From: Parabacteroides sp.
Lineage (GTDB): Bacteria > Bacteroidota > Bacteroidia > Bacteroidales > Tannerellaceae
Reading direction: 5' to 3'
Assembly: GCA_017937385.1 (NCBI GenBank)
Contig: JAGBDR010000009.1
Coordinates: forward strand, 107,721-171,720
Length of the DNA stretch: 64,000 nt
In this document: positions 34,282-51,897 of the stretch, piece by piece
How the letters are laid out: every line of letters starts with the position of its first letter
Numbering within the stretch: position 1 is the first letter of the stretch
Notes under the pieces: generated by a model
Databases searched by the model: none
Seen by the model: only the letters and a program-made list of their open reading frames with translations
What the model was told of the DNA's origin: nothing
Program-made: the position numbers and the translations under genes

Positions 34282-34558
34282 CCTACCGGGATGTGTCGAT
34301 ATAAGCAACCTTACATATCTTTCATCGACAATCCTTTGCACGAAAGGGAATAGCCTTTCAACTCACCTGTCGCACGCAGGAAAACGGTGGCCATTTCCGA
34401 AACCGCCGTTTCGGAAACAGCGGTTTCGGAACGGTAAAAGTAATGCTATTTTCGGCAAAACAGGCAATTGATACGGATATATTCAACAAATAATCTCCAA
34501 TTTCCTATTTTAGCACACCGACCAGACAGATTTCATCACATAACAAGTATACGGAAAT

Positions 34559-35503
34559 ATGGAACAAAAGAAACAGAGAAAAAAGTCTTCCCTGTCATTA
34601 CTCGAATATGCCCGGAAGCGTATCGCATGGAAAGTACAACTCAACAAGACGAGCACGGCGGAACTCTACCGGGCAACGGTCAACCACTTCCTGAAATTCA
34701 CCGGCAACGAGCGGTTCCGGCTGGAAGAGCTGAACCGGACGTTGGTAGCCGACTTCGCCGCCTACCTGCAAAACAAAGGGCTGGCGACCAACACGGTCAA
34801 CTCCTACCTGAGCAGCCTCCGTGCCATCTACAACGCCGCGTGCTACGACCGATCGATCTTCCCGGCTGACCATCCGTTCAGAGGATTGAAGCTCAAACGG
34901 GAACCGACCGTGAAGCGTGCGGTCCCCGTCGCATTTATCCAAAAATTGGCGAACCTCCGGACAACCGATTCCCCCAAACAGGAACTGGCGACTGATATGG
35001 CCCTGTTCAGTTTCTTAGCGTGCGGAATGCCGTTTATCGACATGGCGCATCTGACGGCAAGTAACCTCCGGAACGGCGAGCTGGTCTACAACCGCCGGAA
35101 GACCGGGGCGCAAGTCCGCATGGAGATCACCCCCGTCATGTGGCAGATCATCCGCAAATATACGCCCACCGACGGGGAACGGGAGTTCCTTTTCCCGATC
35201 CTCCCGACACGCACACCGACTCATTCGCAGTACAAACACTGTCTGGCTTCGCACAACAAGCACCTGAAAGTGATCGGAAACAAACTTTGCATTCCCATCC
35301 TCTTCACCTCCTACGTGACGCGCCACAGCTGGGCATCCGCCGCCCTGCAATCCGGAATCTCCGTGGCAGTCATCAGCCAGGGACTGGGACATAGTTCGGA
35401 AAAAACGACGCGCTATTACCTGAGTGAACTGGATGTATCGGAATTAACAAAGGCAAACCGCATCATTTCGGCTCCGATCAATTGCCTGTTGGGAGAAGGA
35501 TAG
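34559..35503 (+). CDS. Tyrosine site-specific recombinase (phage-integrase family, SAM-like N-domain), probable invertase
   Basis: NTVNSYL.SLRAIYN, Y.RRKTG, YVTRHSWAS, ISQGLGHSSEKTTRYY. Confidence 0.92.
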   Translation: MEQKKQRKKSSLSLLEYARKRIAWKVQLNKTSTAELYRATVNHFLKFTGNERFRLEELNRTLVADFAAYLQNKGLATNTVNSYLSSLRAIYNAACYDRSIFPADHPFRGLKLKREPTVKRAVPVAFIQKLANLRTTDSPKQELATDMALFSFLACGMPFIDMAHLTASNLRNGELVYNRRKTGAQVRMEITPVMWQIIRKYTPTDGEREFLFPILPTRTPTHSQYKHCLASHNKHLKVIGNKLCIPILFTSYVTRHSWASAALQSGISVAVISQGLGHSSEKTTRYYLSELDVSELTKANRIISAPINCLLGEG

Positions 35504-35786
35504 GACGGGATTCGGTCCTTATTTATGAAATAAGGTATATAGATTATAACAAACTTGTTATCATTATATTAGATTGATTCAAGTTTGAGATAACGGATAT
35601 ATTTCCTTATATCGGAAGGCAAATATAGCGAAAAAAGGAAAGGATGGAGACTTTTTTAATGAAAAAAAGACCTTTCCATCTCTTTATTACCTGAAACCTT
35701 ACATTATCTATATAAAACCGGGATGTTCCTTGTTTCAGGAACAGGGCCTGGTTACACGTCTTTTGCAAAAAGGTAACACGCCTTTA

Positions 35787-35812
35787 TAGAGACGCAACCT
35801 GCTGCGTCTCTA
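35787..35812. repeat. REP-like palindrome
   Basis: TAGAGACGCA-ACCTGC-TGCGTCTCTA. Confidence 0.8.
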
Positions 35813-35884
35813 CCTGTATTGAGGACGTCCTATTTTCCAATCGTCCGTCCTTTTTTTAATGTCCTATCGACATTTATGTGCTAC

Positions 35885-35912
35885 GTAGAGACGCATGGCC
35901 ATGCGTCTCTAC
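35885..35912. repeat. Perfect 28-bp palindrome (REP-like)
   Basis: GTAGAGACGCATGG|CCATGCGTCTCTAC. Confidence 0.9.
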
Positions 35913-35961
35913 AACCCCGTCACACCTTATTTCATAAATAAGTTACTACCCAAAGTATCGG

Positions 35962-37059
35962 ATGGAAGAGAAGAAAAACATAGAGAAACAACACGTCTCC
36001 ATTGACATTTCTTACGGAAAATATTCGCAAGCGGTCCTGTTGTATGCCACCACCGACCTGACCGGCAAACAGATTGCCGAGCAATGCGGCGTCAGCCTGT
36101 CCGGATTCAGGATCTACTTGAGGCGGCACTACCGCGAACTGGTGCTCAAACGGAACAATGCCGAACCGGAGGAAAGCGCCTGCTTCACGAAGGACGGCAA
36201 ACTGCGTGGCAAACGGGGACAGACACCCGCCGCCCACCAAAAATACAAAGAGGCCATCGAAGCCTGCGACAACTTCGACTACATCGAATACAACGTCTCA
36301 CAAATCGCCCGCATGTTCGGACATGACGGGACCGCCTTGGGGAACCAGTTGAAACTGCACTACCCGGAGATCCTCGAACGGCGCGAAAAGACACGGATAC
36401 GCCTCGGACTCGCGGACAATTTCCTGCGGGGCGTCCATCCCAACAGCGTGAAAGAATATGCCGTCGCCGTCGAACTCTACCGCACCACCGACCGCAACCT
36501 GCCCTCCATCGCCGATGAATGCGAAGTCTCGCTCGCCGGGCTCAGCCAGCATTTGCGCTTCTACCACAAAGACTTGGTGAAGCAGAAAAGCGCCCTCTAC
36601 CGGCAAGCGGCAGGCAGCCGCCAGCCGGGCAAGCCGGGTGGCAACGGACGCGCCTCCGAACCCTCCTTCGGCACGTACGAAAAATACCGCGAGTCGATCG
36701 AGCTGTACCGCACGACCGGCCTGACCGCCAAGGAGGTCGTCGCCCGTACCGGCGTCACGCTCGGAGGCTTCTGCAACCACCTGCGCAAATGGCACCGCGA
36801 CCTGATGCTCGAACGGCGGGGCGGTACTCCCGAAGCCGATTGCAACCGGTGCGACCTCGACCTGAGCCAAAGCAAACGCTACCTCAAATCGACCGCCGCC
36901 AAATATGCCCCCGTCATCGAAAGCCTCAAAGCCCGTCCGCGGCCGGTCGCCCACGCAGCCGCCGAGTTCGGCGTGGACCCCGACAACTTCCGACGCTACC
37001 TGCGGACGCACGAGCCGGAACTGGCGGAGCGGTTCGGCAAGAAAAAGAAAATCAAATAA
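35962..37059 (+). CDS. Hypothetical protein with five tandem HTH-like repeats
   Basis: Repeated KY..A..LY.TT.L....IA...GV....F..YLR.H...L motif. Confidence 0.8.
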   Translation: MEEKKNIEKQHVSIDISYGKYSQAVLLYATTDLTGKQIAEQCGVSLSGFRIYLRRHYRELVLKRNNAEPEESACFTKDGKLRGKRGQTPAAHQKYKEAIEACDNFDYIEYNVSQIARMFGHDGTALGNQLKLHYPEILERREKTRIRLGLADNFLRGVHPNSVKEYAVAVELYRTTDRNLPSIADECEVSLAGLSQHLRFYHKDLVKQKSALYRQAAGSRQPGKPGGNGRASEPSFGTYEKYRESIELYRTTGLTAKEVVARTGVTLGGFCNHLRKWHRDLMLERRGGTPEADCNRCDLDLSQSKRYLKSTAAKYAPVIESLKARPRPVAHAAAEFGVDPDNFRRYLRTHEPELAERFGKKKKIK

Positions 37060-37078
37060 CAATCAAATTATAACAAGT

Positions 37079-37678
37079 ATGATACGAAAACTGATCATCA
37101 TGATGTTTCTGTTAGCTGTCCCCCTGGCGTTCTACGCACAGGACAACAGATTGGCCGGACAAAGAGGTTCGGTCGTCGGGATCAAGACCAACCTCCCTTA
37201 CTGGGGAGTGCTGGGTACTTTCAACGCAGGCGTGGAGTTCCGCTTGGCACGCCGCTGGAGTTTAGACATCGAAGCCGGCCTGAACCCGTTCGACGGGAAG
37301 AAAGACGACGACAGCTATGGCAAATCGCTCAAACACCTGCGCCTGCACCCCGAACTGCGCTACTGGTTCTGCGAAACGGGCTACAGGCATTTCGTCGGGC
37401 TGCACGTCCCCTACCTATTATATAATGTATCGGACATCCGGATGTTCGGCCTCGAAGGCAAACGCCGCCAAGGCTGGGGCACGGGCGTGGGGCTGAGCTA
37501 CGGCTACTCGTTCCTGCTCTCGAAGCACTGGAACTTGGAAGCGACCGTCGGCGCGGGCTACCTCTACCTCGAGTCGGAGAAATACCCCTGCGCCAACTGC
37601 GGACGCCGGAAAGGATACGAGAAAAAGCACTACGTCGGTCCCACCCAGGCGGCCGTCAACCTGATTTACCAATTCTAA
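37079..37678 (+). CDS. DUF3575 outer-membrane beta-barrel protein
   Basis: IKTNLPYW...TFNAGVEF, PELRYWFCE, EATVGAGY, YVGPTQAAVNLIYQF. Confidence 0.85.
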   Translation: MIRKLIIMMFLLAVPLAFYAQDNRLAGQRGSVVGIKTNLPYWGVLGTFNAGVEFRLARRWSLDIEAGLNPFDGKKDDDSYGKSLKHLRLHPELRYWFCETGYRHFVGLHVPYLLYNVSDIRMFGLEGKRRQGWGTGVGLSYGYSFLLSKHWNLEATVGAGYLYLESEKYPCANCGRRKGYEKKHYVGPTQAAVNLIYQF

Positions 37679-37691
37679 TCGTCGCAGCCTT

Positions 37692-39125
37692 ATGAAAATC
37701 AAGAAACAGATACTTCTCGCGGCAAGCCTGATGGCTGTTGCCGCCCTGCAAGCACAAGAAATCAAAGTCAAAGACAAGCGGGTCGAAAAATCGGACGGCA
37801 CATTGATGATCGGGATGACGCTCGACTTCAGCGAAGTGGACGTCCCCGCGGGCCGCAGCGTCGTCTGCACGCCGGTCATCGCCTCGGGCGACAGCATCCG
37901 CCCGCTGGCCCCCGTCATCCTCAACGGCCGCAACCGCCAGATCCTGTATGAACGCACGGGACGCACCTACGCCACCCACGGCGAATACGCCCTGCGCCGC
38001 ACGAACGGCCACGAGCAGACCTTCGACTACACCGCCCACACCCCGCTGGCGCCCTGGATGAAACGCGCCGAAGTCGCCCTCGTCACCGACCTCTGCGGTT
38101 GCGGCTGGGAGGCGTTGCAGAACAACCGTTCGCCGCTCTTCCCGATCCGCCTCGCCGAACCGGTCGTGCTCCGTCCGCAGCTCGCCTACCGCACCCCGGT
38201 GGCCGAAGCGGTCAAAGCCCGCGCCGTCGAAGGCAAAGCGTTCCTCGACTTCCCCGTCAACCGCACGGAGATCCACCCCGACTACCGCAACAACCCGCGT
38301 GAACTGGAGGCCATCCGCGCCACCATCGCCTCAGTCAAGGACGACCCCTACGCCACCATCACCGAAGTCTGGATCAAAGGCTTCGCCTCGCCCGAAGGAC
38401 GTTACACGGCCAACGCCTACTTGGCGGAAAACCGCGCCAAGGCCCTCAGCGACTACGTGAAGAAGCTCTACCGTTTCGACGCCGCCACCGCCTTCACCAT
38501 CGAGTCGGAACCGGAAGACTGGCAAGGATTAGAAAAGCAACTCTCGGAGAGCAACCTCCCCGACAAGGCGGAACTCCTCGCCATCGTCCGCGACCCGGAA
38601 CCCGCCGACCTCGACAAGAAAGAAGGAAAACTCAAAAACCTGAACGGAGGAAGCTCCTATAAGATATTGTTGCGCGATGTCTATCCCGCCCTGCGCCATT
38701 CGGACTACGCCGTGCGCTACACCATCCGCAACTTCACTGTTGAAGAGGCAAAAGAACTGCTCTACACCGACCCGAAGAAGCTGAGCCTGAACGAAATGTT
38801 CCAGGTGGCACAGACCTACGAGCCGGGTAGCAAACAGTTCAGCGAAGTATTCGAAATTGCCGTTCGCCTGTACCCCGACGACCCCGTGTCGAACCTGAAT
38901 GCAGCCAACACCGCCATTCAGAACGGGCAGTTGGAACAGGCGAAGCGCCACCTGGCGAAAGCCGGGACATCGGCCGAGAAGCAACTGGCGGAAGCTGCTG
39001 TTGCCATGCTGGAAGGCAAACTCGACTGGGCTGAACAGCTATTGGCACCCCTGAAGGACAACGCGGAGGTGGCAGCAGCTGCGACTGGCAACCTGGAGCA
39101 AATCCGGTTGAAGAGAGAAGAATAA
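37692..39125 (+). CDS. DUF3868 / OmpA-like periplasmic protein with C-terminal TPR
   Basis: Signal peptide, FLDFPVN...YRNNPREL, GFASPEG....N..LAENRA, YPALR, A.NLNAA. Confidence 0.85.
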   Translation: MKIKKQILLAASLMAVAALQAQEIKVKDKRVEKSDGTLMIGMTLDFSEVDVPAGRSVVCTPVIASGDSIRPLAPVILNGRNRQILYERTGRTYATHGEYALRRTNGHEQTFDYTAHTPLAPWMKRAEVALVTDLCGCGWEALQNNRSPLFPIRLAEPVVLRPQLAYRTPVAEAVKARAVEGKAFLDFPVNRTEIHPDYRNNPRELEAIRATIASVKDDPYATITEVWIKGFASPEGRYTANAYLAENRAKALSDYVKKLYRFDAATAFTIESEPEDWQGLEKQLSESNLPDKAELLAIVRDPEPADLDKKEGKLKNLNGGSSYKILLRDVYPALRHSDYAVRYTIRNFTVEEAKELLYTDPKKLSLNEMFQVAQTYEPGSKQFSEVFEIAVRLYPDDPVSNLNAANTAIQNGQLEQAKRHLAKAGTSAEKQLAEAAVAMLEGKLDWAEQLLAPLKDNAEVAAAATGNLEQIRLKREE

Positions 39126-39149
39126 ATCAATTAAAAAAAAGAATCGACT

Positions 39150-39596
39150 ATGGCTATCAAGTATAAATTAGTACAAAGAAAAGACTTTTCAAAAGACGCG
39201 CCGAAAGACGCAAAGAAGTATTTCGCGCAAATCGTATCCAACGGTACGGTCACGTTCGACGAACTGTGTGAAGGGATTGCAGAAGAATCCGCATTGACCA
39301 GTGGCGACGTGAAAGGCATGATCGACCGGTTGACCAAAGCATTGGTCCGCCACCTGAAAGCAGGCCGCAACGTGCAGATCGGCGAGTTAGGCAATTTCCG
39401 CCCGACGCTCGGAAGCAAAGGCGCCGCCTCTGAAAAAGAGTTCGACGCCGGCACCATGATGAAGAAACCGGGCATGATGTTCACACCCGGCAAAGCGTTG
39501 CAGAACATGCGCACGCAAATCACCTTCGAACGCATCAGCAAGAAAGAGGAAACGACAACAGGAGGAGGAGAAGAAGAAAGGCCGGGCGAGCTCTAA
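39150..39596 (+). CDS. Bacteroidales HU-related DNA-binding protein
   Basis: VTFDELC..IA..S.LT.GDVKG....L...L..G..VQIGELGNFRP; acidic Gly-rich tail GGGEEERPGEL. Confidence 0.88.
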   Translation: MAIKYKLVQRKDFSKDAPKDAKKYFAQIVSNGTVTFDELCEGIAEESALTSGDVKGMIDRLTKALVRHLKAGRNVQIGELGNFRPTLGSKGAASEKEFDAGTMMKKPGMMFTPGKALQNMRTQITFERISKKEETTTGGGEEERPGEL

Positions 39597-39611
39597 ACAG
39601 CCCCACCGGAG

Positions 39612-39726
39612 AGCTGCCGCAGCCGTTGTCCAAGATCTGCTGCAGCTCTCCTCCGACATCTGCTGCAGCTCCCGAAAGAGATCTGCAGCAGCTCTCGGAA
39701 GGCATCTGCAGCAGCTCTCGGAAGAT
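39612..39726. repeat. 23-bp-period array of ATCTGC(T/A)GCAGCTC
   Basis: Cores at 39635, 39658, 39681, 39704, plus a degenerate copy at 39612. Confidence 0.9.
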
Positions 39727-39768
39727 ACTTACGATAGCCATAAAACAAGATGAAATAAACGACAGAAT

Positions 39769-41355
39769 ATGATAAACGACAAGATAAAAACAGTGGGCCT
39801 ACTGGCACTCTTCGCACTCCTGCCGGCTTGTGCGGATGACGCGCCATTCGACAAGGGCCACGAGCCGGAGAGCGGAACACACGAGTACTACCTCCGTCTG
39901 ACACTCCGGCACCCGGAAGCCGGCCTCCCGACCCGGTCGACCCCGACCGGAGGCGAACCAGGCGACGGACACGAGCCGGGGCAAGACCACGAGACACGCA
40001 TCGACGACCTGACGTTGCTCTTCTACCGGGGCACGGACGGCGTGAACTCGGACGCCTCGACCCCGATCGACAAAATCATCTACCTCGACCGCGACGCGAT
40101 GGAGGGCGACAACCGTACCGAACCGGTGCCGGTGAACCTGCCGGCAGGCGAATACGACCTGCTCACGGTGGCCAACAGCGGCGACCTGCGCCCGCAATTG
40201 CAGGGCAAGACCCTCGGAGGCGTGCGCGACTACCTGTTGCAACAGGCATGGACGGAAGACGAAGAGGGCCGGTGCTCACGCTTCGTCATGACCTCCGACG
40301 GACATACCCCCGACCGCGTCAGCATCTGCAACCTCAACACGACCGACAACCCCGCCTCGGCAACCGTCGAAGTGGAACGCCTCGCGGCACGTATCGACTA
40401 CCGCACGCGGCACGAAACCTACACGGTCGATGATGCCACCTACGGACATGCCGCCGCCTCGATCACCGGCGCCGTCGTGCTCAACAAGATGAAGGCCGGC
40501 TCCTTCCTGCTGAAACGCACCGCCGCGCCTGACAACGGGCGGCTGACGGCGGCTTCGGCTCTCACCTACCTCGGCGACGAACGGCCGGCGGAAGGAGGCG
40601 TGCAGCGCAACTACGTGGCGGACCCCTGGAGCCTGCAGAAAAAAGCCGCGCCCGTCAACGCCGCACTGGCAAAGCTCTACGACAACTACTATACGTCGTT
40701 CGGCCCCTCGCAAGCCGCCTGGGAAGCCGCCATCCGGACCGGCACGGCGGCCGACGGCTGGCAACGGCTCGACTACACGCAGGAAAACACCATGAGCCGC
40801 GAGGCGCAATCGGACGCCTACCGAACGATGGTGGTCTTCCAGGCACGCTACACCCCCGAAGGGTATGAACCGGGACAGACCTTCTACCGCGTGAAAGGCC
40901 GCATCTTCCCGACCCGCGCCGAAGCGGAAGCGGCGGCCCAGGGGACAGGCGCGTTGGTGCGCGAATACCACGACGGGCTGTGCTACTACGTCTGGCGCGT
41001 GCGCCACTCCAACGACGGCAACGACGCCACGCAGGGCATCATGGAATATGCCATCGTGCGCAACAACATCTACCGCCTCCTGGTCGCCTCGATCGACGGA
41101 TTAGGCGATGAAGTCCCGTTCCCCGAACCGGACGGGAAAGACCCGGACCCGGTCGACCCTGACGACCCCGATCCCGATGAACCGGATCCCGACGAGCCTG
41201 ACCCCGACAATCCGGACCCGGACAACCCCGATCCGGACGAACCTGATCCGGACAACCCGGACCCCGATAATCCCGACCCCGAAGAACCGCCTATCACAAT
41301 CGTCGTGACGGTGGAAGAATGGACCCAATTAAACGAACATGACATTTATCTATAA
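39769..41355 (+). CDS. Type V pilus major subunit, Mfa1-like lipoprotein
   Basis: Lipobox LLPAC, PTR|S maturation-like site, VERLAARID, YAIVRNNIYRL.V..I.GLG, Pro/Asp-rich linker, terminal VVTVEEW strand. Confidence 0.88.
   Translation: MINDKIKTVGLLALFALLPACADDAPFDKGHEPESGTHEYYLRLTLRHPEAGLPTRSTPTGGEPGDGHEPGQDHETRIDDLTLLFYRGTDGVNSDASTPIDKIIYLDRDAMEGDNRTEPVPVNLPAGEYDLLTVANSGDLRPQLQGKTLGGVRDYLLQQAWTEDEEGRCSRFVMTSDGHTPDRVSICNLNTTDNPASATVEVERLAARIDYRTRHETYTVDDATYGHAAASITGAVVLNKMKAGSFLLKRTAAPDNGRLTAASALTYLGDERPAEGGVQRNYVADPWSLQKKAAPVNAALAKLYDNYYTSFGPSQAAWEAAIRTGTAADGWQRLDYTQENTMSREAQSDAYRTMVVFQARYTPEGYEPGQTFYRVKGRIFPTRAEAEAAAQGTGALVREYHDGLCYYVWRVRHSNDGNDATQGIMEYAIVRNNIYRLLVASIDGLGDEVPFPEPDGKDPDPVDPDDPDPDEPDPDEPDPDNPDPDNPDPDEPDPDNPDPDNPDPEEPPITIVVTVEEWTQLNEHDIYL
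41140..41289 (+). repeat. Degenerate 15-bp coding repeat encoding PD(N/E)PD units
   Basis: DPDPVDPDDPDPDEPDPDEPDPDNPDPDNPDPDEPDPDNPDPDNPDPEEPP. Confidence 0.9.
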
Positions 41356-41367
41356 ACAGACAGCAAA

Positions 41368-42378
41368 ATGAAAACATACAGACACTATATCGCCGGAGCG
41401 TTCGCCGCGCTCCTCTCGTCCGGCCTCGCCTCTTGCGACTACATCCACGACAAGGACCTGCAGCCGTGCGACCATTACCTGCGTTTCACGTACACCTATA
41501 ATATGAAGTTTGCCGACGCTTTCACCCACGAGCTGACCAACCAGGCCACCGAGAAGACGACCGGCCTGTACATCTTCGACCGCGAAGGGAAGTTCATCCG
41601 CTCCGAAAGCTATCCCGCCGGGGCGTTGAAAGAGGGGCGCGTCCGCCTCGACCTCGAACCGGGCGACTACAAGCTGATGGCGTGGACGGGACTGAACGAA
41701 ACAGACTATGCCTACCCGGCTCCCGCCACCGGCGAGACAATCGGCCAGTGGCAGGTGGCAACCAAGGCTCAAAACGGGACGGTATCGCGCGAACTGTCGG
41801 GACTTTTCCAAGGAACGCTCGACCTCACCATTCCGGAAGGCAAGGCAACCGACTATGAACTGCCGCTCGTGAAGCAGACCAACAAAATCCGTTTCGTCCT
41901 GATCGACGCCAACCGCGGGACGGGATTGAACGCCGACGACTTCACCATCCGCGCCGTGACACGCTGCGGCAAGCTCGACGCGCAGGGAGAGCCGGCAGGG
42001 ACGGACACCTATGTCTGGACCCCCTACCTGCAAACCGTCCGGACTGTCACCGACGCCAAAGAGACAGCAACTAAGACGCAAGCCGTCGTTGCGGAGCTGA
42101 ACACGCTACGCCTGATCGACGGCACGGAAACCGCCTTGCAGCTCTCGCACAAGGAGGAAACGACGCCCTTCTTCAACGTCAGCCTGACCGACTTCCTGTT
42201 GCTCACGAAGATGGAGTCCCACCAGATAGGCGCACAAGAATACCTTGACCGGCAGGACGAATATACGGTCGTGATCTACCTCGACCTCGCCGGCGGCAGA
42301 GCGCACTGCCTCGAAGTCATCGTAAACGACTGGACAGTCCGCCTCGACGAGTTGAACTTAAACAGGAAAGGGGCTTGA
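41368..42378 (+). CDS. FimB/Mfa2-family pilus anchor lipoprotein
   Basis: Lipobox LASC-D, C...LRFTYTYNM..ADAF, LYIFD..G.F, C-terminal VIVNDW. Confidence 0.88.
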   Translation: MKTYRHYIAGAFAALLSSGLASCDYIHDKDLQPCDHYLRFTYTYNMKFADAFTHELTNQATEKTTGLYIFDREGKFIRSESYPAGALKEGRVRLDLEPGDYKLMAWTGLNETDYAYPAPATGETIGQWQVATKAQNGTVSRELSGLFQGTLDLTIPEGKATDYELPLVKQTNKIRFVLIDANRGTGLNADDFTIRAVTRCGKLDAQGEPAGTDTYVWTPYLQTVRTVTDAKETATKTQAVVAELNTLRLIDGTETALQLSHKEETTPFFNVSLTDFLLLTKMESHQIGAQEYLDRQDEYTVVIYLDLAGGRAHCLEVIVNDWTVRLDELNLNRKGA

Positions 42379-42379
42379 C

Positions 42380-43663
42380 ATGACGAACAGACGATTCGAC
42401 ACAACCGTACGCCTCGCCCTCTTCGCCCTCCTCGCAGGGCTGTTGGCAGGTTGCAGCGCAGACGAAACCCCTGCCCGTCCCGAAACCGTCACCGCCACCC
42501 TCTCCCTCCGCACCGAAGCGGGCGACCGGCTGACAAAGGCGGTAAACGAGAGCGACATCAACACCTTGGATGTCTACATCCTGAACGGGACAACGGTGGA
42601 ACAACATCTGACGAAAGACAACTTTACAAACAACAACGGGACAGCCACCGTAGAACTGACAGCCGGTACGAAAACCATCCGTGCAGTGGCAAACGCCGAC
42701 AATTCATACGAGGAGACGGCTCCGGCAAACACAGCGGTCAATGCTTTGGGTGATTGGTTGGACAATGATGCCACCGCCATGCCGATGTCCACTACCTTAG
42801 ACACGACTTGGAATGTCTCGACCACGCCAACCGAATATGAAGTCCGCCTCAACCGCATGGTGGCAAAGATGAATGTAAAGGTGGTGGACGAACGGGCAAA
42901 TCAAACTCCGGCAGTTTCTTCCGTCACCATCGACGGCTTGCTGGCAGGGATGACGAACTTGTACAGAAGCGGGTATGGGACGATTGATTTGCCTACCAAT
43001 GTGACAGCAACAGATTGGTCTTGGGAGAATCTCACATTCAATACGACAACAGCAGAAGCGACCCATGAAGATTTCTACCTTCACGAAAACAAAGGCACAT
43101 TCCCCGTCACCGTGAAGTTAGGAGATAATACCGAACGTACAGGTAGCTTCACCGCCACGATCCCCCGTAACCATATCTTCCCGCTGGTCATCCATCTCAC
43201 GGATTACAGCCTTTCGTTCAAGGTCACGTATCAACTGGCGGCTATCGGCACGTTGCCGGTCAGCAAAGGTCCTTCAAACACATATAATATTGAACTGCCT
43301 GAAGGATGTACCTACGAGGTTGAGGTTACGGCACAAAACAATTCAGGAACCGGCTGGAACAACGCTTCGTGGACATGGGGTACTCCGGGAACCGGCAATG
43401 CGTCCATTACGGTCAATCAAACGGATTGGCCGGATGGCACAGCCATTTCCGACGCAGCTCCCACCTTTACCTTCACCGGAAAGGTTTCCGCACAACACGT
43501 CAGCGGCACTTGCGATATTCCCGTCACTTTGACGGACAATGGGAAAACGATAAACTTCACTATCAAAATGTCTACCAGTGAACTAAACGACAGTGAACTG
43601 AATAAAACGACAACGAAATCCGTTCACCCGGCAAGTCCTCGCCAGATAGACATTGATTTATAA
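42380..43663 (+). CDS. Minor/tip type V pilin lipoprotein
   Basis: Lipobox LAGC, LTK|A site, L.RMVAK, IPRNHI pilin motif. Confidence 0.75.
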   Translation: MTNRRFDTTVRLALFALLAGLLAGCSADETPARPETVTATLSLRTEAGDRLTKAVNESDINTLDVYILNGTTVEQHLTKDNFTNNNGTATVELTAGTKTIRAVANADNSYEETAPANTAVNALGDWLDNDATAMPMSTTLDTTWNVSTTPTEYEVRLNRMVAKMNVKVVDERANQTPAVSSVTIDGLLAGMTNLYRSGYGTIDLPTNVTATDWSWENLTFNTTTAEATHEDFYLHENKGTFPVTVKLGDNTERTGSFTATIPRNHIFPLVIHLTDYSLSFKVTYQLAAIGTLPVSKGPSNTYNIELPEGCTYEVEVTAQNNSGTGWNNASWTWGTPGTGNASITVNQTDWPDGTAISDAAPTFTFTGKVSAQHVSGTCDIPVTLTDNGKTINFTIKMSTSELNDSELNKTTTKSVHPASPRQIDIDL

Positions 43664-43688
43664 TCAACTAAAATTAGGAATTAGAGCA

Positions 43689-46600
43689 ATGAAACATAGA
43701 AATCTATTCATACAATTCTTACGGAGCATTCCCTTGCTCCTCATCCTCCTGCTCTTCAATGGGGGCGCACTTAGGGCGCAAAACAATCCACAATATGCGA
43801 CAGGAGACCAAATGAAGGTAACCAGCGATATAGAGACTCATTTGTGGTTTTTTCCGGACGGGACACGAATTAGTGTAGCTCAAGAGGGAACGGGAAATAT
43901 ATCTCACATCATAAGCAGGGATCATAATGGAGAATCTTGGCAATATTCAGGTTCCGAAAGTGTAATGATAACCATCGAACGTACAGATGATGATACAAAA
44001 CCGTTGTCCGTACTTGTGGTAGAGTATGGAGATCAAACTCCCCTACCAGCTCAGCAAATCACTGTTAAATGGGACAATAATGAGACACAAATATTCAGTA
44101 ATAATATAGAAGAAAGGACTGTTTATCTACGATTAAAAGAACCTATTACATCTAAGAAGATCGAACTTACATTTCAACCAAATAGTACCCAATTTGATAT
44201 TAAGAAAATCTACTCTTTACCAAGCATCCAGCACAAAGCTGCCAAATGGCACAAAATGCGTAGTAAAACCACGACTTATGGAGATACTTTCGATAAAACG
44301 GAGTTTTTCGAACTTACGGGAGACGATTATGTAAACCGCCAAGTACAAGCAACTCACGTTATGACCGACACAATCTATATGCGTAGAGGAACAAGAGTGA
44401 ACTTGACATTGCCAAATAAACTCGATGATAATCAACTAACTCAAAACTCCATGAACAGCTACATCCGTTGGTACAGCTATCGGACAGGGACAACCTATTT
44501 GACGGAACATAGAACACAGAATGGGACGTTTCCTAATGTGGGTGTATATGACTTATTGACTCCAGCAAATTCAAACGAAGGTGCTTCTGATGCCATTACA
44601 CGCTTTGATAATGGATATCTCTTACTTCCATTTACAACTAAAAGTTTGTTTGCCGGTATGAACTTTTACTTTCCTACAGATGATGAATTTAAAGCCTGGT
44701 TTCCCTCTTTTGAAAATAGTTCTAAAATAGATAACAATTTGTATGTTGTCGCTTGTGATGTTTCGCAATATGCAGATTATGGAACAGACGAAACTATAAC
44801 AGGAACCCAACTTGCAGAGAAATTTAAAAACAGTGATTATTGTGAACCGACTTTGACCCACCGCCTCATTTATTATATCAAAGCCGTAGAAGAAGAAGAG
44901 CCGCCATACGAGGAATACACAATCAATATGCCGGCCACTCGTGTCCGTAGCTATACAACCGAACTTGTAACCCTTTCAAAGATGGCCCGCAATTATTTAT
45001 CTCAAAACGGAACAGAAGAGGCGGCTACACTGGTTGCGACTATTGACGCTAATGATAATTCTGCGGGTATTGAGTTATGTAACCAACACGATTATGACGG
45101 AGGAAAACAAGATCAACTAATACTCACCGGAACAGATCGAAACATTACATTCCGTTATCCACGTGTGAATGATGATCAAACCAGAACAGTTATTCCTGAA
45201 ACAGATAACGGTCAACCGCTAACTGCGACAATTGTTGTAAGGCATCAAAATTCAGATAAAGTAGTCGCCAAGTTCCACCTCAACTTCGTCAGAGGAGGAC
45301 GTCTGCTTACACAGAGTATGGTAAAACTGTTAGACGGCGAAGAAGTAAACGGCCAAACATTAGATCGGTATAATACAACCCAATGGGCTACCCTCGGCTA
45401 TCGTACCCCTAAGAAAATTGATGAAGATCCCAACAATGAAGTACTGACGGAATTGACAATGGATTATGACGAATCGGAGGATATTGAATCAGATAATCAT
45501 ATAAAAGGTTATTACCCCTACCCATTAGCTTGGAATTCGAGCAGTTATGGATTTTATGACGGAACAAAGAAAAATAGCGGGTTTAACGGAAACAAAAACT
45601 GTGCGGAATGGGGTAATTATGCAATTACAACAAAGTATGTAGAATGTGGCGGTGAAGGAGAATGGGAAAAAAGTAATATCACAAGGCCCAACACAACAGG
45701 CGCCTATGAACCCAAAGGTTACCACCTCTATATCGATGCCTCCGACCGGCCAGGAACAATTTTCCGTGCTCCCTTCCGTAAGAAGTTATGTTCAAATGCC
45801 CAACTGACATTCTCGGCATGGGTAAAGGTAGCCCGTGAAGGCATAGCAGACAATGCCGGTATGCTATTAACCATCATGGGAAAAACAGTTGATGAAAAAG
45901 GCTATGATAAATACGTACCGGTCTACCGTTACCTGACAGGGCAGATTCCTGCCACTTATGTAGCATCAGCCAATTTGCCGGGATTTAGCACGGAGCCGAA
46001 ATCCAACGAATGGTTCCATGTTTATTTCACATTCATGAATGGTAATATAGACTACGAGGACTATTACTTGCAAGTCGATAACTACTCGGCTTCCACGGCA
46101 GGTGCCGATATGTACCTTGATGACGTACGGGTCTATATGGCGAAACCCAAAGCCCTTGTCAAGCAAAAGAAAATCACGTGTAATGAATTTACATTGATGA
46201 CTTTGGCGTTGGATTGGGAAACATTGCTTGCACGTATCAATGCTTCAGAAGAGGAAACAGACGAAACAATAACAGCCTCAATAGACTTCTGCTTTGTGGA
46301 CAGCCTCGATTATGCCAAAGCAATCTATGTGGATCATCTACCGACAGCAGAAGCAATCCAAGCATCTTGGATGCCTATTACAACAGATAAAACAAGGCAT
46401 GTCGGTCACTTGTCTTTCAACTTGAATTTCTCAAAGAATGACGAATATCCTGAATCCGAAGACAAATCTGTATTCTCGGAGCATAGTAACCAATTTTACC
46501 GGACAGGGACAAAGGAGGATGGCAACCGCCAACTCATCGGTGATTTCAATTCGGCACTGCAACAGAACCGCCGGTATATGATTCTGATCCGCGAAAATCA

Positions 46601-49600
46601 AGGGAATAGAGATGATGAAAATGTAGATGGTTTCACAGACGCTTACGATGATTGCTCCATATCGGCCTCATTCTCCGTGGAGAGCCAAAACCAAGTGCTT
46701 ATCAACGGCGAAGTATTGAAACCGGAAAAAGAACAAGAATACTGCGTCGGACAAACCATCGAACTGGCAATGCAGTTGAGGGTTGAAGATAAAGACGAGA
46801 ACGGAAATACGATATATAAACCTTACGAAGGATCTACCGTTTACTACGATTGGTATTTCAATTCGCCAAGGGAAGGTACGGAAGAAGATTTTGAAACACA
46901 GCAATCGGAATATGACAATGTTACCGTAAAAGAAGCATTGGTACTACTCCGGGAACACTATCCCAACGTTACAGCAGAAGCATATACCGACACGGACGGA
47001 ACAACAAAATATCGGTTGCCCTCAGATGTTACAGCCAAGGATGATTTTACAAATAACCATATCGACCTAATCAACGCTAAGCTGAACGAACCGGGACGCG
47101 ATGCCGCTGTAAACCGTAGGTTGATCTTACGCCGGGAGAGACTGACAGTCCGCCTTTTGGATAACGATGGACGTAGTTTGAAAATCATTCCTATTCCAAT
47201 AACAGAAAATGAAAAAGCTCTTATTTGTGCAGAGCCTGTCGATCTGCGCATGACACCTTTCGGAAGTGCGCCCAGCGTGCAGCCTGGATTCGAGTATATG
47301 AACTATCCGGAAGAGACGTATAATCCGGCTATGCGTATCGGGTTGAAGCATATAGAAAACTCAACACAAACAAACCAGATTACCGTCAACCTCCGTAACA
47401 TCAAATATGCACGAGAGTTAGATGAATATGGAGCCAATAAACCCACCCATGTAGGTTTGATGTCCAGCGGTATGGATGAATCAGATGTCCTTAATGACAT
47501 TTACCTGATCGGTTCTACCGACCCGGCTTATAAGGATTTGTTTACCGAGTCGAATTCCCCATACACCTACGTAATCGGAAAGGTTCATTCTTTTTATGCC
47601 CAACCGCGTAAATTGGGAGATGAAATTAATGGGACAAATGTCATGAAAATCCACTTTAAGGATGGTGAACAGATGACCGAAGGCGACAAGGACCTCAAAT
47701 TCGACCCCAAGGAAGGGTACGAATATACCTTTATGGTCCGGTATGAAGAACATTACAATACGGGTACCCGAGCCGATGACAATGAGAATAGCGACGACGA
47801 CAAATTACCCGTTCCCTGTTATGGCAACTTCATCATGACCATGAAAGTCGTCCCCGAATACCTGGTTTGGCAAGGCACAACAACAGGCCTCAACTGGAAC
47901 GACGATTCGCAATGGAAACGGGCGACGAATGAGGATATACATGCCAATAATATTATTCCCAATTATGGGAACAATTACAATGATAACCCCGGCTACGTTC
48001 CCATGCGGTTCTCGAAGATCATCATCCCAAGAGATGGCAAAGTGGAATTGTATAAGGCAGGATTCGAGGGTGATAAAACAAAATACCGTAATGTTGAGTG
48101 GAAAACTGAAATCAATGACGATGCACACAAACACATGGATCCGCCGGCAACCGATGAATATCGCAAACACCCGATCCAATACGATATGATGGTATATGGG
48201 AAAAAGGGCGATGATGGCAATTACACCGATATGCACACCGACCCCTACACCGTAAACCGTTGCGAAGAGGTGCATTTCGAACCGGGAGCCGAGATGATGC
48301 ACGCCGAACTGTTGTCGTATAAAAACCAGCTTTCATCAGATGACATAACCTATCAAAAAGCCTGGGTAGAATACGAATTGGAGAAAGGCCGCTGGTATGC
48401 CCTCTCCTCTCCTTTGCAAAACGTCTTCTCCGGTGATTTCTATACCGGCAAGGACGGCAAGGAGGCTTCAGAATATTTCACACCTATTCAATGGAATAAC
48501 AACAACAGCCGTCTGAACCCGACCGTCTATCAACGCGGATGGAAAGGGAGTAGCGCAACGATGGTGGGTACCGGTACAGACGCTACCGGAGAACGTGCCA
48601 TTGCCGGCAACTGGAGTGCCCTATATAATAAGGTAGACGAAAACTATGGTGAAAACGGCTTCTCGCTTCGGGTACAAGATATTGAAGGTACTGGTAGTAA
48701 AGCCTTGTTCCGTCTCCCGAAAGCGGATGTATCCTATACATATAATAGTAATGACGGAAATACTTCATCAGGAACGATAAGTCGTGAAAACAGCCACAAG
48801 TTAAGAATCGATAATCTGAATGATAATAATAACGGCATGACCGTCCCACTTGCAGCAAACGACAACAACCCGTACTATTTAGTCGGTAACCCGTTCATGG
48901 CACAGTTGAAGATGGAAGAGTTCTTCAATAAGAATACTTCACTTGCAAAAACCTATTGGTTGGTGGATGAAAACAACCAACAAATAGCAGCAAACGGAAA
49001 CAACGACGCATGGACTGCCAACGGCAAGGATGGCAACAACGGAACGGTTCCGCCTTTAACCTCTTTCTTTGTAAAGAAGGCGGATAATGCAACTACTGTA
49101 CCAAATGAGGTCACTTTCACCGCCGATATGCAAACACTGGATACAGAAGCGACTACAGCAAGCGAACCCAATACCCCGGCCCTCTACCTGACCATCACAA
49201 CGGCCGACGGACGGCAAAGCCACGCTTCGATCGCCTACGATGCAGCTTCAGACAAAGGCTATCGCACGGATGAAGACGCCGAATTGTTCTTAGATTCCAA
49301 CTTGGGCAACGTGCCGATGGTCTATACCGTAGCCGGCACAATGGCAGCAAGCGTCAACCGCACCTCCGACCTCTACGACATCCCGGTAGGCGTGTACGGA
49401 GGCGACAAGGCTTCCAACGTGGTACTCTCGTTCGACGGTATGGAATCGTTCGCCAGCGTCAGCCTTTACGATGCCGTCCGCAAAATCGAGACGCCGTTGC
49501 ACGAAGGCAAAAAGATCGAAATCCCTGCCGCCACAGCCGGTCGTTACTTCCTCCGCGCCGGTATGCCGACCGCCAACGAAACAATCGCCCGCAATGCGTT

Positions 49601-49814
49601 CCGTATCTATACGGTAGGCAGAGAGCAAGTCATCGTGACCGCGGCCAACGCCCCGTTGAAGACCATTCTCGTCCATACGGTCAGCGGCAAGCAGGTACGC
49701 AGCATCCAAGCCGACGGAATGCAGTGGCAATTCCGCCTGCCCACAGGCCTCTACCTCGTCACCGCCATTGACAAAGAAGGCCTTCAGGAAACAGAAAAGA
49801 TTGTCGTGAAGTAA
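43689..49814 (+). CDS. Large secreted surface protein/adhesin with probable T9SS C-terminal sorting domain
   Basis: Sec signal MKHRNLF...LRAQ; YLVWQG..NWND..QW and YLVGNPF motifs; C-terminal ...VSGKQVR....LPTGLYLV...EKIVVK. Confidence 0.8.
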   Translation: MKHRNLFIQFLRSIPLLLILLLFNGGALRAQNNPQYATGDQMKVTSDIETHLWFFPDGTRISVAQEGTGNISHIISRDHNGESWQYSGSESVMITIERTDDDTKPLSVLVVEYGDQTPLPAQQITVKWDNNETQIFSNNIEERTVYLRLKEPITSKKIELTFQPNSTQFDIKKIYSLPSIQHKAAKWHKMRSKTTTYGDTFDKTEFFELTGDDYVNRQVQATHVMTDTIYMRRGTRVNLTLPNKLDDNQLTQNSMNSYIRWYSYRTGTTYLTEHRTQNGTFPNVGVYDLLTPANSNEGASDAITRFDNGYLLLPFTTKSLFAGMNFYFPTDDEFKAWFPSFENSSKIDNNLYVVACDVSQYADYGTDETITGTQLAEKFKNSDYCEPTLTHRLIYYIKAVEEEEPPYEEYTINMPATRVRSYTTELVTLSKMARNYLSQNGTEEAATLVATIDANDNSAGIELCNQHDYDGGKQDQLILTGTDRNITFRYPRVNDDQTRTVIPETDNGQPLTATIVVRHQNSDKVVAKFHLNFVRGGRLLTQSMVKLLDGEEVNGQTLDRYNTTQWATLGYRTPKKIDEDPNNEVLTELTMDYDESEDIESDNHIKGYYPYPLAWNSSSYGFYDGTKKNSGFNGNKNCAEWGNYAITTKYVECGGEGEWEKSNITRPNTTGAYEPKGYHLYIDASDRPGTIFRAPFRKKLCSNAQLTFSAWVKVAREGIADNAGMLLTIMGKTVDEKGYDKYVPVYRYLTGQIPATYVASANLPGFSTEPKSNEWFHVYFTFMNGNIDYEDYYLQVDNYSASTAGADMYLDDVRVYMAKPKALVKQKKITCNEFTLMTLALDWETLLARINASEEETDETITASIDFCFVDSLDYAKAIYVDHLPTAEAIQASWMPITTDKTRHVGHLSFNLNFSKNDEYPESEDKSVFSEHSNQFYRTGTKEDGNRQLIGDFNSALQQNRRYMILIRENQGNRDDENVDGFTDAYDDCSISASFSVESQNQVLINGEVLKPEKEQEYCVGQTIELAMQLRVEDKDENGNTIYKPYEGSTVYYDWYFNSPREGTEEDFETQQSEYDNVTVKEALVLLREHYPNVTAEAYTDTDGTTKYRLPSDVTAKDDFTNNHIDLINAKLNEPGRDAAVNRRLILRRERLTVRLLDNDGRSLKIIPIPITENEKALICAEPVDLRMTPFGSAPSVQPGFEYMNYPEETYNPAMRIGLKHIENSTQTNQITVNLRNIKYARELDEYGANKPTHVGLMSSGMDESDVLNDIYLIGSTDPAYKDLFTESNSPYTYVIGKVHSFYAQPRKLGDEINGTNVMKIHFKDGEQMTEGDKDLKFDPKEGYEYTFMVRYEEHYNTGTRADDNENSDDDKLPVPCYGNFIMTMKVVPEYLVWQGTTTGLNWNDDSQWKRATNEDIHANNIIPNYGNNYNDNPGYVPMRFSKIIIPRDGKVELYKAGFEGDKTKYRNVEWKTEINDDAHKHMDPPATDEYRKHPIQYDMMVYGKKGDDGNYTDMHTDPYTVNRCEEVHFEPGAEMMHAELLSYKNQLSSDDITYQKAWVEYELEKGRWYALSSPLQNVFSGDFYTGKDGKEASEYFTPIQWNNNNSRLNPTVYQRGWKGSSATMVGTGTDATGERAIAGNWSALYNKVDENYGENGFSLRVQDIEGTGSKALFRLPKADVSYTYNSNDGNTSSGTISRENSHKLRIDNLNDNNNGMTVPLAANDNNPYYLVGNPFMAQLKMEEFFNKNTSLAKTYWLVDENNQQIAANGNNDAWTANGKDGNNGTVPPLTSFFVKKADNATTVPNEVTFTADMQTLDTEATTASEPNTPALYLTITTADGRQSHASIAYDAASDKGYRTDEDAELFLDSNLGNVPMVYTVAGTMAASVNRTSDLYDIPVGVYGGDKASNVVLSFDGMESFASVSLYDAVRKIETPLHEGKKIEIPAATAGRYFLRAGMPTANETIARNAFRIYTVGREQVIVTAANAPLKTILVHTVSGKQVRSIQADGMQWQFRLPTGLYLVTAIDKEGLQETEKIVVK

Positions 49815-49844
49815 GATATCAAGGGTTTCCCTGATACAGATCCG

Positions 49845-49885
49845 GGAGGGTGTACCGAGATTCATTCCAGGCACACCCTCCTTTT
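49845..49885 (+). terminator. Intrinsic terminator ending the pilus operon
   Basis: GGAGGGTGT...ACACCCTCC followed by TTTTT. Confidence 0.75.
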
Positions 49886-50015
49886 TATCCTGCCGGCAAA
49901 AAAGAGCATTAAAGATACAGCTAAAATTTTATCTATATCTGAACGTAAAGTTCAAGAACTACTCACCGAATAATCTAAACTTTCCCCATATCTTTCCTTC
50001 GAACTATATCAAAAC

Positions 50016-50070
50016 ACAGAAGACCGCAGATTCATTATTGCAAACCAATAAAAAATCTGCGGTCTTCTGT
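50016..50070 (-). terminator. 17-bp-stem hairpin downstream of the AspT/YidE gene
   Basis: ACAGAAGACCGCAGATT (50016-50032) / AATCTGCGGTCTTCTGT (50054-50070). Confidence 0.65.
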
Positions 50071-50108
50071 CTAATTCGCGTTCTCCACGCCTCCTATCAT
50101 TCCACGCC

Positions 50109-51785
50109 CTACGCGAAGAACAAGATCAGCAATTGCGCCGTCAATACCCGGAGGAACATCGTCAGCGGGTAAACCGTTGCATACCCTACCGACGGAGCAT
50201 CGTTTCCGGCTGTTGCGTTCGAATAAGCCAATGCAGGCGGGTCGGTCGTACTACCGGCAATAAGCCCCATAAGCGTAAAATAGTTGACCTTGCAGAAATA
50301 GCGGCCGATACAGCCGATGATCATCAACGGGACAAACGTGATAATGAAACCGTAGCCAATCCAGGCAAAACCACCGTTATTCACAATCGTATCGACAAAA
50401 CCGTCACCCGCACTGATACCGACACAGGCAAGGAACAACGTAATACCCACCTCACGCAACATCAAATTGGCACTCTGTGTCGTATAAGTAATCAACTTAT
50501 AGTGATAACCGAAACGGCTGACCAAAATCGCCACAATCAGCGGACCACCAGCCAGACCTAACTTCACCGGCTGCGGAATACCCGGGAATGTAATGGGAAT
50601 GCTACCCAAGACGATACCCAGTGCGATACCGATAAAGATTGTGATCAGGTTCGGTTCGTTCAGACGCTTCATCGAGTTGCCCAACACCTTTTCCACATTG
50701 CCGACGGCCGTTTCCGTACCGACCACATTCACACGGTCGCCCACCTGCAAAGTCAGTCCCGGTTTAGCAACCAGATCCATACCGGCACGGCTGATGCGGG
50801 TAATATTGATACCGTACAACTTGCGCAGCTTCAACTGTCCCAGCCGCTTGCCGTTCAACTCCGGTTTCGTGATCAGGATACGACGGTTGATGAACTGGCT
50901 CTCCATACGAATCCACTGTTTACGCTCCATGTCGATCTCCTCCCCGATAAAGGTCTTGATTGTCTCGGCATCCGTCTCGGTCGTGATGACAAAGACCTTG
51001 TCGTTTTCCTGCAACAACGTATTGGCGGAAGCGATCTCGATCTGTTTGTTGCTGTCACGCCAGATACGGGAAATGACGAAATCGCGATGTTCCAACAGGT
51101 TCGACAATTCGGCCACCGTCTTGTTGAAGATCGCCGGGTTCTTCACCACTAATGAAATCGGCTTGGCCTCATTGGTGTGCGAAGCATCTTCGTTGTTCAA
51201 CTGCTCATTTTCCTTATCGAAATTTATACGGAAAATATACTTAATCAAAATAATAGACAGGATGATACCGATCACACCCAACGGATAAGCGACGGCATAT
51301 CCCAAAGCGATCGTATTGTCAGCCACTCCGTGCATATCGGAAAACGCCTGCTGAGCCGCTCCCAAGCCCGGAGTATTCGTGACCGCTCCCGACAAGATAC
51401 CGACCATCGTAGGCATCGGAATACCGGTTACATAATGCAGGATGATAGCTGTCACGACACCGAGAAACACGATTCCACATGCCAGCATATTCAACGTTAT
51501 CCCTCCTTGCTTAAAGGAAGAAAAGAAACCCGGTCCGACCTGCATACCCACAGAGTAGACAAAAAGTATCAATCCGAACTCCTTAAAAAAGTGAATCACA
51601 TTGTGGTTGATCGTAAAACCGAAATGGCCTAAAATGATCCCCACAAATAACACGAGAGTAATTCCCAATGATACGCCAAAGACCTTAATTTTACCCAATT
51701 GAATGCCCGCGGCGATCACAAAGGAAAGCAGAAGTATGGAGTGGCCAATGCCTTCGCCCCATAACAAATCATTAATCCAATTCAT
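50109..51785 (-). CDS. AspT/YidE/YbjL-family transporter with two TrkA-C domains
   Basis: [60 protein letters not shown]. Confidence 0.92.
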
Positions 51786-51897
51786 AAATAAAAAGTGTAG
51801 TTATAATCTTAAATTTGCCTTAGAGGCTGCAAAGGTAGACATTTACTTTGTGTTTAACAACATAAATATTACCTTTACGCACCAAATATTTTAAAAG

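Follow-up and report, generated by a model that had tools for sequence, protein, structure and literature searches.

The stretch of DNA analyzed here, referred to as the window, comprises 64,000 nucleotides (nt) of a Parabacteroides sp. genome (assembly GCA_017937385.1, contig JAGBDR010000009.1, positions 107,721 to 171,720). The bacterium is an uncultured Parabacteroides, and the window carries a type V pilus operon whose last two genes encode a third pilin (pilin3) and a giant protein. The most probable explanation for the distal end of this operon is that the body of pilin3 and the passenger of the giant protein recombine while the export parts at either end are kept constant. In three lineages, the pilin3 leader, up to its maturation-like site LTK53|A, is conserved, as are the ~210 C-terminal residues of the giant protein; both are rich in G and C at third codon positions (GC3) and under purifying selection. 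In the same three lineages, mature pilin3 and the passenger form hypervariable, GC3-poor mosaics, most markedly so at the lectin-like tip of the passenger. On the evidence of sequence comparison, these mosaics are shown to arise by homologous recombination between strains, and sharing between species is likely.

All of the gene parts described in this and the next paragraph lie on the plus strand. The pilin3 leader (42380..42538; GC 0.65) consists of a signal peptide, a lipobox LAGC (Cys25) and an N-terminal extension to LTK53|A; the lipobox and the conserved LTK53|A make the precursor a predicted lipoprotein with a putative cleavage site at Lys53. The suggested maturation site of solved pilins from Parabacteroides and Bacteroides ovatus falls at Lys43-54, and Porphyromonas gingivalis pilins mature after Arg43-53 (PMC4789730). 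The variable mature body (42539..43663; GC 0.50, GC3 0.58) resembles FimA/FimD-like accessory or tip pilins. It scores 40.6 bits (E 1.4e-10) against the NF052322 model (FimD_tip_adhes), below the cut-off of 170 and over the N-terminal 170 residues only, and homologues of pilin3 carry PF06321. Comparison of the pilin3 sequence with the PDB returned chance-level amylase matches only. Pilin3 is classified as a type V pilin, and its place in the gene order points to a role at the tip.

The giant gene starts at the ATG at 43689, where a 100% identical database protein of 2,041 aa (P0001) also begins. Its product opens with a Sec signal peptide (43689..43781, MKHRNLF...ALRA|Q, in full MKHRNLFIQFLRSIPLLLILLLFNGGALRA|Q), which was read directly from the sequence, the hydrophobic core being identified by eye. 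It is followed by the mosaic and variable passenger (43782..49147; GC 0.43; mosaic identity 60-99%), in which a hypervariable N-terminal lectin-like domain of the CBM32 / F5/8 type C kind (43839..44222) coincides with the GC3 minimum. The conserved GC-rich tail of ~210 residues (49148..49814) is made up of a beta-rich domain that bears the DEDAELFLDSNLG..VYTVAG motif, followed by a type IX secretion system (T9SS) C-terminal sorting domain (CTD), type A, which occupies the last ~75 residues (49599..49811). As the first-pass annotation of this DNA had proposed, both ends of the variable zone are thus related to export, with the lipobox Cys25 and Lys53 site in the pilin3 leader and the T9SS CTD in the tail of the giant protein.

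Contigs of relatives were compared in three lineages, each with its own chromosomal context. Lineage W includes the window, L021, L022, and L023; lineage X includes L031-L034, where the operon lies between RecQ/ABC-F genes and ffh; and lineage Y includes L024, L035, and L036 (Parabacteroides distasonis-like, then electron transfer flavoprotein genes downstream). The type of locus found in lineage Y is also present in the laboratory strain P. distasonis ATCC 8503. The nt identity of the window to L021/L022 is 0.92/0.94 in the operon head, 0.81/0.86 in the mature pilin, 0.86/0.80 in the passenger, 0.91/0.96 in the tail, and 0.97/0.96 downstream; mature pilin3 is thus at 81-86% vs 92-94% for the head. 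In lineage X, identity reaches 0.97-0.99 in the flanks and 0.98-1.00 at the start of pilin3, is 0.55-0.78 in the pilin3 body and 0.04-0.62 in the passenger, and is 0.96 in the last ~500 nt. Lineage Y follows the same conserved/variable pattern as lineage X. The first-pass annotation had predicted from the window alone that an alignment across conspecific genomes would give a conserved leader and tail around a divergent interior, and this arrangement, flanks included, is found in the three lineages.

The limits of the zone can be placed precisely. On the left, variation in the allele alignment starts directly after LTKAV. Mean pairwise identity among seven lineage-W alleles of pilin3 is 0.95 for residues 1-54 vs 0.85 after, and among 113 other cluster representatives it is 0.95 for the leader vs 0.72 for the mature part, in agreement with a left bound at LTK|A. 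On the right, the four giant alleles of lineage X become near-identical exactly at 'ALTITATT', ~210 residues from the end, and are unrelated just before it; their last 240 residues are 97-100% identical and their first 1,500 residues 30-50%. This sharp onset supports the right border of the annotation and places it at the last ~210 residues of the giant protein. The notion of a conserved tail holds within lineages but not across them: compared with the tail of the window, those in lineages X and Y show no more than 37-59% identity. Both constant parts adjoin or include sequence under strong constraint. Mfa2, the anchor pilin gene that forms the conserved left flank (41368..42378, plus strand; PF08842, 181.8 bits, E 2.6e-53), has a GC3 of 0.79, 95-97% nt identity in L021 and L022 and dN/dS (ratio of nonsynonymous, dN, to synonymous, dS, divergence) of 0.12-0.21, and the tail has 91-96% nt identity to the same two relatives and dN/dS of 0.09-0.16. 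By comparison, dN/dS is 0.4-0.98 in pilin3 and 0.2-0.9 in the variable parts. Public data hold >900 homologues of the giant protein and >400 of the pilin; the latter form >100 clusters distinct at the 90% level, which apparently come mostly from one lineage.

Several lines of evidence bear out the claim of recombination made in the first-pass annotation. First, dS is 0.08-0.16 in the flanking housekeeping genes, and within the giant gene blocks with a dS of 0.02-0.10 adjoin blocks with a dS of 0.5-1.2. Second, trees of different segments conflict. For residues 201-800, the window and P0003 group with P0005 and P0006 of lineage Y, and the near-conspecific P0004 is excluded; in the tree of the tail, the alleles separate neatly into three clades, one per lineage. 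Congruent alternatives are rejected by approximately unbiased (AU) tests (p = 3e-4 and 1e-4). Third, the passengers of the window and of L024 (lineage Y) share 82% nt identity over ~3 kb, vs 71% for the best-conserved head genes. Finally, the X alleles fall into two classes by passenger GC3 (0.34 vs 0.55), which suggests that they come from different sources.

These data also bear on a reading in which the zone evolves rapidly in place, without recombination, through diversifying or relaxed selection with AT-biased mutation, the GC step then reflecting a difference in codon selection. Such a process would fit the high dN/dS of pilin3, whose dS vs L022 is at background, the dN/dS of 2.5 in the first 100 residues of the giant protein, a GC3 profile that is kept across species, and a bulk GC of the zone that is ordinary for the genome. 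It is nevertheless unlikely, since dS rises to 5-10x that of the flanks in separate blocks interspersed with near-identical ones, the segment trees are incongruent, the passenger is closer between species than the conserved head genes are, and the allele classes of lineage X differ in GC3.

The first-pass annotation had further proposed that mature pilin3 and the passenger of the giant travel as one interchangeable cassette of ~6.6 kb between a fixed leader and a fixed tail. The GC change points at 42535 and 49148 described below, the conservation of leader and tail, and the comparison with L021, in which identity falls at ~42600 and recovers at ~49200, all agree with a single unit. The comparison with L022 does not, as identity fluctuates between 0.81 and 0.97 from ~48000 on with no lone recovery at 49200; breakpoints thus differ by strain. 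Within the giant gene, blocks with a dS of 0.02 lie next to blocks with a dS of 1.2. In lineage X, a DUF6261 gene (264-282 aa; ~9040-9890 in L031-L034), which is absent from the lineage of the window, stands between pilin3 and the giant gene and is conserved (0.92-0.99 identity between alleles), so that it splits the variable parts. In L033 and L034, the central passenger is shared (0.83-1.00), while pilin3, the N-terminal domain (0.06-0.51), and the pre-tail region are not. The cross-species tract shared by the window and L024 begins at the start codon of the giant gene and not in pilin3, where the annotation had set the border of the exchanged unit. A single travelling cassette is therefore improbable. 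As judged from these alignments, four or more sub-modules vary independently of one another, namely the body of pilin3 and, in the giant protein, the lectin-like tip, central passenger, and pre-tail region.

The recombining zone has a distinct base composition, from which the first-pass annotation had originally drawn its borders, at 42540 and 49150. Its six hand counts of G and C in 60-nt lines proved exact: 35 (41881), 42 (42481), 26 (43021), 23 (44041), 20 (48721), and 35 (49321). Maximum-likelihood change points reproduce both borders, at 42535 (GC from 0.605 to 0.506) and 49148 (from 0.431 to 0.573), but the fall on the left has two steps, with an extra change point at 43536 (from 0.517 to 0.409). 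The drop begins right after LTK|A at the end of the pilin3 leader, and the recovery lies 5' of the C-terminal export region of the giant protein, both as had been noted. GC3 is 0.77-0.79 in all genes of the operon head but the HU-like gene (0.64); it is 0.74 in the first 53 codons of pilin3 (the leader) and 0.58 in the remainder, takes the values 0.35, 0.42, 0.49, and 0.51 from 5' to 3' along the giant gene, and is 0.70 in the last 223 codons. The profile along the locus is V-shaped, not box-shaped. The contrast is carried by third codon positions, and amino-acid composition is therefore no explanation for the drop in GC. GC also correlates with identity along the locus (Spearman rho 0.63 and 0.51).

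Measured against its genome, the zone does not stand out as AT-rich. The genome has a GC of 47.8%, and its long open reading frames (ORFs) have a mean GC3 of 0.58 (standard deviation 0.10), the low tail of which is reached only by the first ~500 codons of the giant gene. The 6.6-kb variable zone, with a GC of 0.443, lies at the 14th percentile among the 6.6-kb windows of the genome; the operon head (35962-42539), with a GC of 0.599, exceeds every 6.6-kb window sampled across the assembly. The more unusual side of the step is thus the GC-rich head, and the step itself is far beyond chance. The composition of the head could be due to codon selection, to biased gene conversion or to an origin elsewhere. 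Each of the 11 loci, which represent four species, displays the GC3 contrast (0.63-0.87 in Mfa2, 0.34-0.56 in the passenger, and 0.64-0.87 in the tail), and the step therefore belongs to the locus family and not to a recent insertion in this genome. A foreign low-GC island was considered and rejected on the basis of this shared profile and of the bulk GC; the low GC of the zone does not look foreign in this genome. The GC3 step would represent a long-term boundary between resident, codon-biased sequence and fast-evolving sequence that is repeatedly replaced, with no recent foreign insertion.

A further group of mechanisms would generate variation within one genome, by gene conversion from silent cassettes, a shufflon, a diversity-generating retroelement (DGR) or integrase-mediated cassette exchange. 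A tyrosine recombinase gene does lie upstream, beside the operon (34559..35503, plus strand; Phage_int_SAM_5 E 2.3e-19, Phage_integrase E 1.2e-9), and DGRs diversify the tip adhesins of type V pili in Bacteroides (bioRxiv 10.1101/2024.11.15.621889). However, no part of 42380-49814 occurs a second time in the genome, as covered by its 90%-complete assembly, which also lacks template/variable repeat pairs and paralogues of pilin3 and the giant gene. Leader and tail sequences, which the earlier reading had thought might recur elsewhere in the genome, have no paralogues there either, the only similarity being a generic one of 28-29% among CTDs. Direct and inverted repeats flanking the zone amount to short, chance-level matches, and the operon of lineage X is equally variable yet has no integrase next to it. 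Programmed variation of this kind is thus very unlikely.

The inverted repeats associated with the recombinase bracket instead a 387-bp promoter-like segment located 6.6 kb upstream of the zone. This candidate invertible promoter segment (35518..35942) lies between the recombinase gene and the first operon gene and is bounded by 19-nt arms (35518-35536 and 35924-35942; CTTATTTATGAAATAAGGT and its complement) that are 100% complementary and 387 nt apart. A recombinase gene followed by a short segment bounded by perfect repeats, directly upstream of an operon, is the layout of an invertible promoter, and operon expression is probably switched on and off in this way. In L022 and L023, the segment is oriented as in the window. 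An on/off switch of the promoter leaves the allelic variation of pilin3 and of the giant gene without explanation.

The source assembly consists of 128 contigs and is 90%-complete, and in such material a chimera would be conceivable, a metagenome contig in which strains or species are fused at the GC borders. It is extremely improbable here. Database records from 4 contigs contain the identical 2,041-aa protein (P0001), gene order and GC profile are matched in the independent assemblies L021-L023, L011, and L031-L036, and the reading frames are uninterrupted across both borders.

The signal peptide, the CTD, and secretion machinery encoded by the same genome make the giant protein a predicted T9SS cargo. 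The CTD matches TIGR04183 (23.3 and 27.9 bits, with a cut-off of 23), and its structure model, with a predicted local distance difference test (pLDDT) score of about 80-89, superposes on the RemA CTD in the T9SS translocon (8gl6_D; TMt 0.82, root-mean-square deviation 1.8 A). The genome encodes PorM/GldM (TIGR03517, 572.7 bits, above the cut-off) and 13 CTD-bearing ORFs. The models of the giant protein are partly confident, with a mean pLDDT of 61 for the tail and 55 for the N-terminal 440 residues, and use was made of those of the CTD and of residues 51-178 only. The latter (pLDDT 70-91) matches CBM32, discoidin, and fucose-/galactose-binding lectins (E 1e-6 to 1e-4; TMt 0.65 for 2v72). Homologues of the giant protein match PF00754 and PF22633 at residues 46-182, a region in which the allele of the window has no Pfam match. 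The N-terminus is thus modelled as a CBM32/discoidin-like, candidate lectin domain. This domain is only 40-65% identical among near-conspecific alleles, with a dS of 1.18 vs L021 and a dN/dS of 2.5 vs L022 over the first 100 residues.

One element of the tail stands out. A motif, DEDAELFLDSNLG..P.VYTVAG, is coded by a 74-nt stretch (49272-49345) whose DNA is 85-86% identical in a number of giant-like genes from other species, in surroundings of 65-70%. It is invariant across the three tail types and is therefore a strongly constrained element.

Taken as a mechanism, the preferred reading, that of a recombining pilin body and passenger between constant export parts, would run as follows. The pilin3 leader and the CTD of the giant protein would be removed during export, and would therefore not be part of the displayed surface. 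Crossovers would resolve in conserved blocks, namely Mfa2 with the leader, internal conserved motifs, and the tail; resolution in several such blocks would therefore allow sub-modules to be exchanged independently. By analogy with Mfa5 of P. gingivalis, the giant protein would be exported by the T9SS and join the pilus tip as a ligand-binding adhesin. Diversification may be driven by specificity for host glycans or partners, by antibody pressure or by phage pressure.

A number of points weigh against this reading. Lineage W provides only three alleles with flanking DNA. At 94-97% identity, their flanks are at the limit for a single species, and conserved and variable parts contrast only modestly in that lineage. 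The groups compared in the AU tests were picked after the identity tables had been seen. Long-standing polymorphism shared between species would mimic the patterns expected from horizontal transfer, and low GC3 could result either from import from AT-richer donors or from weaker codon selection with AT-biased mutation. The link between the giant protein and the pilus is by analogy, through gene position and the export signal. Neither Pfam nor NCBIfam detects a von Willebrand factor type A (vWA) domain in the giant protein, and comparison with PDB sequences, the Mfa5 crystal structure included, gave no match at E <= 1. In addition, the best hit in a search for PorV (NF033710) reached 60.6 bits, below the cut-off, in this 90%-complete genome.

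The closest known case is mfa5 of P. gingivalis, which occurs as five genotypes (A-E), independent of mfa1-mfa4 (Sakae et al. 2021, PMC8313007). All of its alleles are homologous in the C-terminal half, T9SS CTD included, and differ in the N-terminal part, and Mfa5 needs the T9SS (PMC8313007). Both mfa5 and the giant gene are last in a type V pilus operon, encode a product that has a T9SS CTD as well as a Sec signal peptide, and have alleles that vary independently of the other pilins. By contrast, the giant protein is ~2,041 aa long, lacks a vWA domain, and has a CBM32/discoidin-like tip, and the neighboring pilin is also variable here, from its putative maturation site on. Recombination and the GC3 step are documented, and cross-species sharing is likely, for the present locus; the words 'recombination' and 'GC content' are absent from the text of PMC8313007. 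Based on position and export signal, the giant protein is best regarded as an analogue of Mfa5 and not as a demonstrated homologue. Given this precedent, the locus extends a known kind of system and does not define a new one. What it adds is a larger and different cargo with a lectin-like tip, a variable adjacent pilin, recombination, likely cross-species sharing, and a conserved GC3 signature. A literature search found no paper on this diversification in Parabacteroides.

Two other kinds of system invite comparison. Hypervariable surface-structure loci such as those for O-antigen and capsule are replaced by recombination in conserved flanks. Like them, the present locus has a variable interior of lower GC, conserved flanks as putative crossover sites, and alleles shared across lineages. 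Unlike them, its putative crossover flanks are inside coding sequences and coincide with probably cleaved export signals, and what varies between them is a patchwork of sub-modules in two genes and not a set of whole genes. The DGR system of Bacteroides, like this locus, diversifies the ligand-binding end of a type V pilus through a gene downstream of the anchor and stalk pilin genes (bioRxiv 10.1101/2024.11.15.621889). Whereas DGRs introduce adenine-directed changes into a C-type lectin fold, the variation described here is between genomes, extends over kilobases and whole domains, and comes with no template/variable repeat pair.

Among gut Bacteroidales, type V pili serve as the principal organelles of adhesion. 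The preferred reading implies that the displayed parts of the pilus tip are drawn from a pool that recombines, in part across species, and that the export signals stay fixed. It offers several leads: the exposed ligand-binding part may be delimited from sequence alone by a GC3 step plus either a maturation site or the edge of a CTD, the candidate lectin domains could enter glycan-binding studies, and the locus could serve as a strain-typing marker for Parabacteroides. A bolder idea, which we consider rather doubtful, is that Mfa2 with the leader and the ~210-residue tail are genus-wide docking sequences for a pool of adhesin modules shared by Parabacteroides species. Exchange would then be recombinase-free, the crossover sites would be the cleaved export signals, and the GC3 step would be its durable footprint. 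If this were true, GC3 steps at maturation sites could predict exchangeable surface modules from a single genome.

The remaining genes of the operon, all on the plus strand, are found upstream of Mfa2. The first encodes a multi-helix-turn-helix (HTH) regulator-like protein (35962..37059; Sigma70_r4_2 and HTH matches; GC3 0.77), followed by a DUF3575 outer-membrane beta-barrel-like protein (37079..37678; PF12099, E 1.9e-61), a DUF3868 / OmpA-like / tetratricopeptide repeat protein (37692..39125; PF12984, E 3.9e-8; GC3 0.78), a DNA-binding protein of the HU family (39150..39596; HU-HIG E 1.4e-31; TIGR01201 108.6 bits), and the major (stalk) pilin of the Mfa1 family (39769..41355; NF038041 182.5 bits, with a cut-off of 130; Fimbrillin_C; GC3 0.79). 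An Mfa1-family stalk and an Mfa2/FimB-type anchor together identify the locus, by family matches, as a type V (Mfa/FimA-type) pilus operon. Densely packed, overlapping palindromes with CTGC(A/T)GCAGCTC as their basis occupy 39609-39725, between the HU-like and Mfa1 genes, and may form a protein-binding or attenuator region. The Mfa1-type pilin carries a Pro-Asp repeat (PDPDxPDPD...) near its C-terminus (41190-41330), where identity dips locally to 0.63, and its length varies by strain via this repeat (528, 518, and 498 residues).

A paralogous pilus locus is present in the same genome, on contig C90 (~145000-153500; L020). Its recombinase, HTH, DUF3575, and DUF3868 proteins are 76-87% identical to those of the window, and its HU, Mfa1, and Mfa2 proteins 62%, 28%, and 36%, respectively. 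It has no homologue of pilin3 or of the giant protein, and its head has a GC of 0.60-0.64 and its stalk pilin one of 0.41-0.45. In lineage Y and at this paralogous locus, the body of the Mfa1-type stalk pilin, too, varies or has a low GC. A search of genome contigs with Mfa2 found only four distant loci, from Porphyromonadaceae and Muribaculaceae (31-34% identity).

Downstream, the giant gene is followed by a terminator-like hairpin (49844..49886, plus strand), read from the sequence as GGGAGGGTGT...ACACCCTCC and then TTTTT. An Rfam search of 33000-52000 found no family. Just after the giant gene, L022 (16226-16714) and L023 (15958-16446) have an extra ORF of 162 residues, corresponding to ~500 inserted nt, which is absent from the window. 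Finally, a palindrome with 25-nt arms (50016-50070) occupies the gap that separates the giant gene from the convergent Asp-Al_Ex transporter gene. Another Parabacteroides species (G021) has the palindrome sequence at several sites, and it may be a repetitive extragenic palindromic (REP)-like or shared terminator element.

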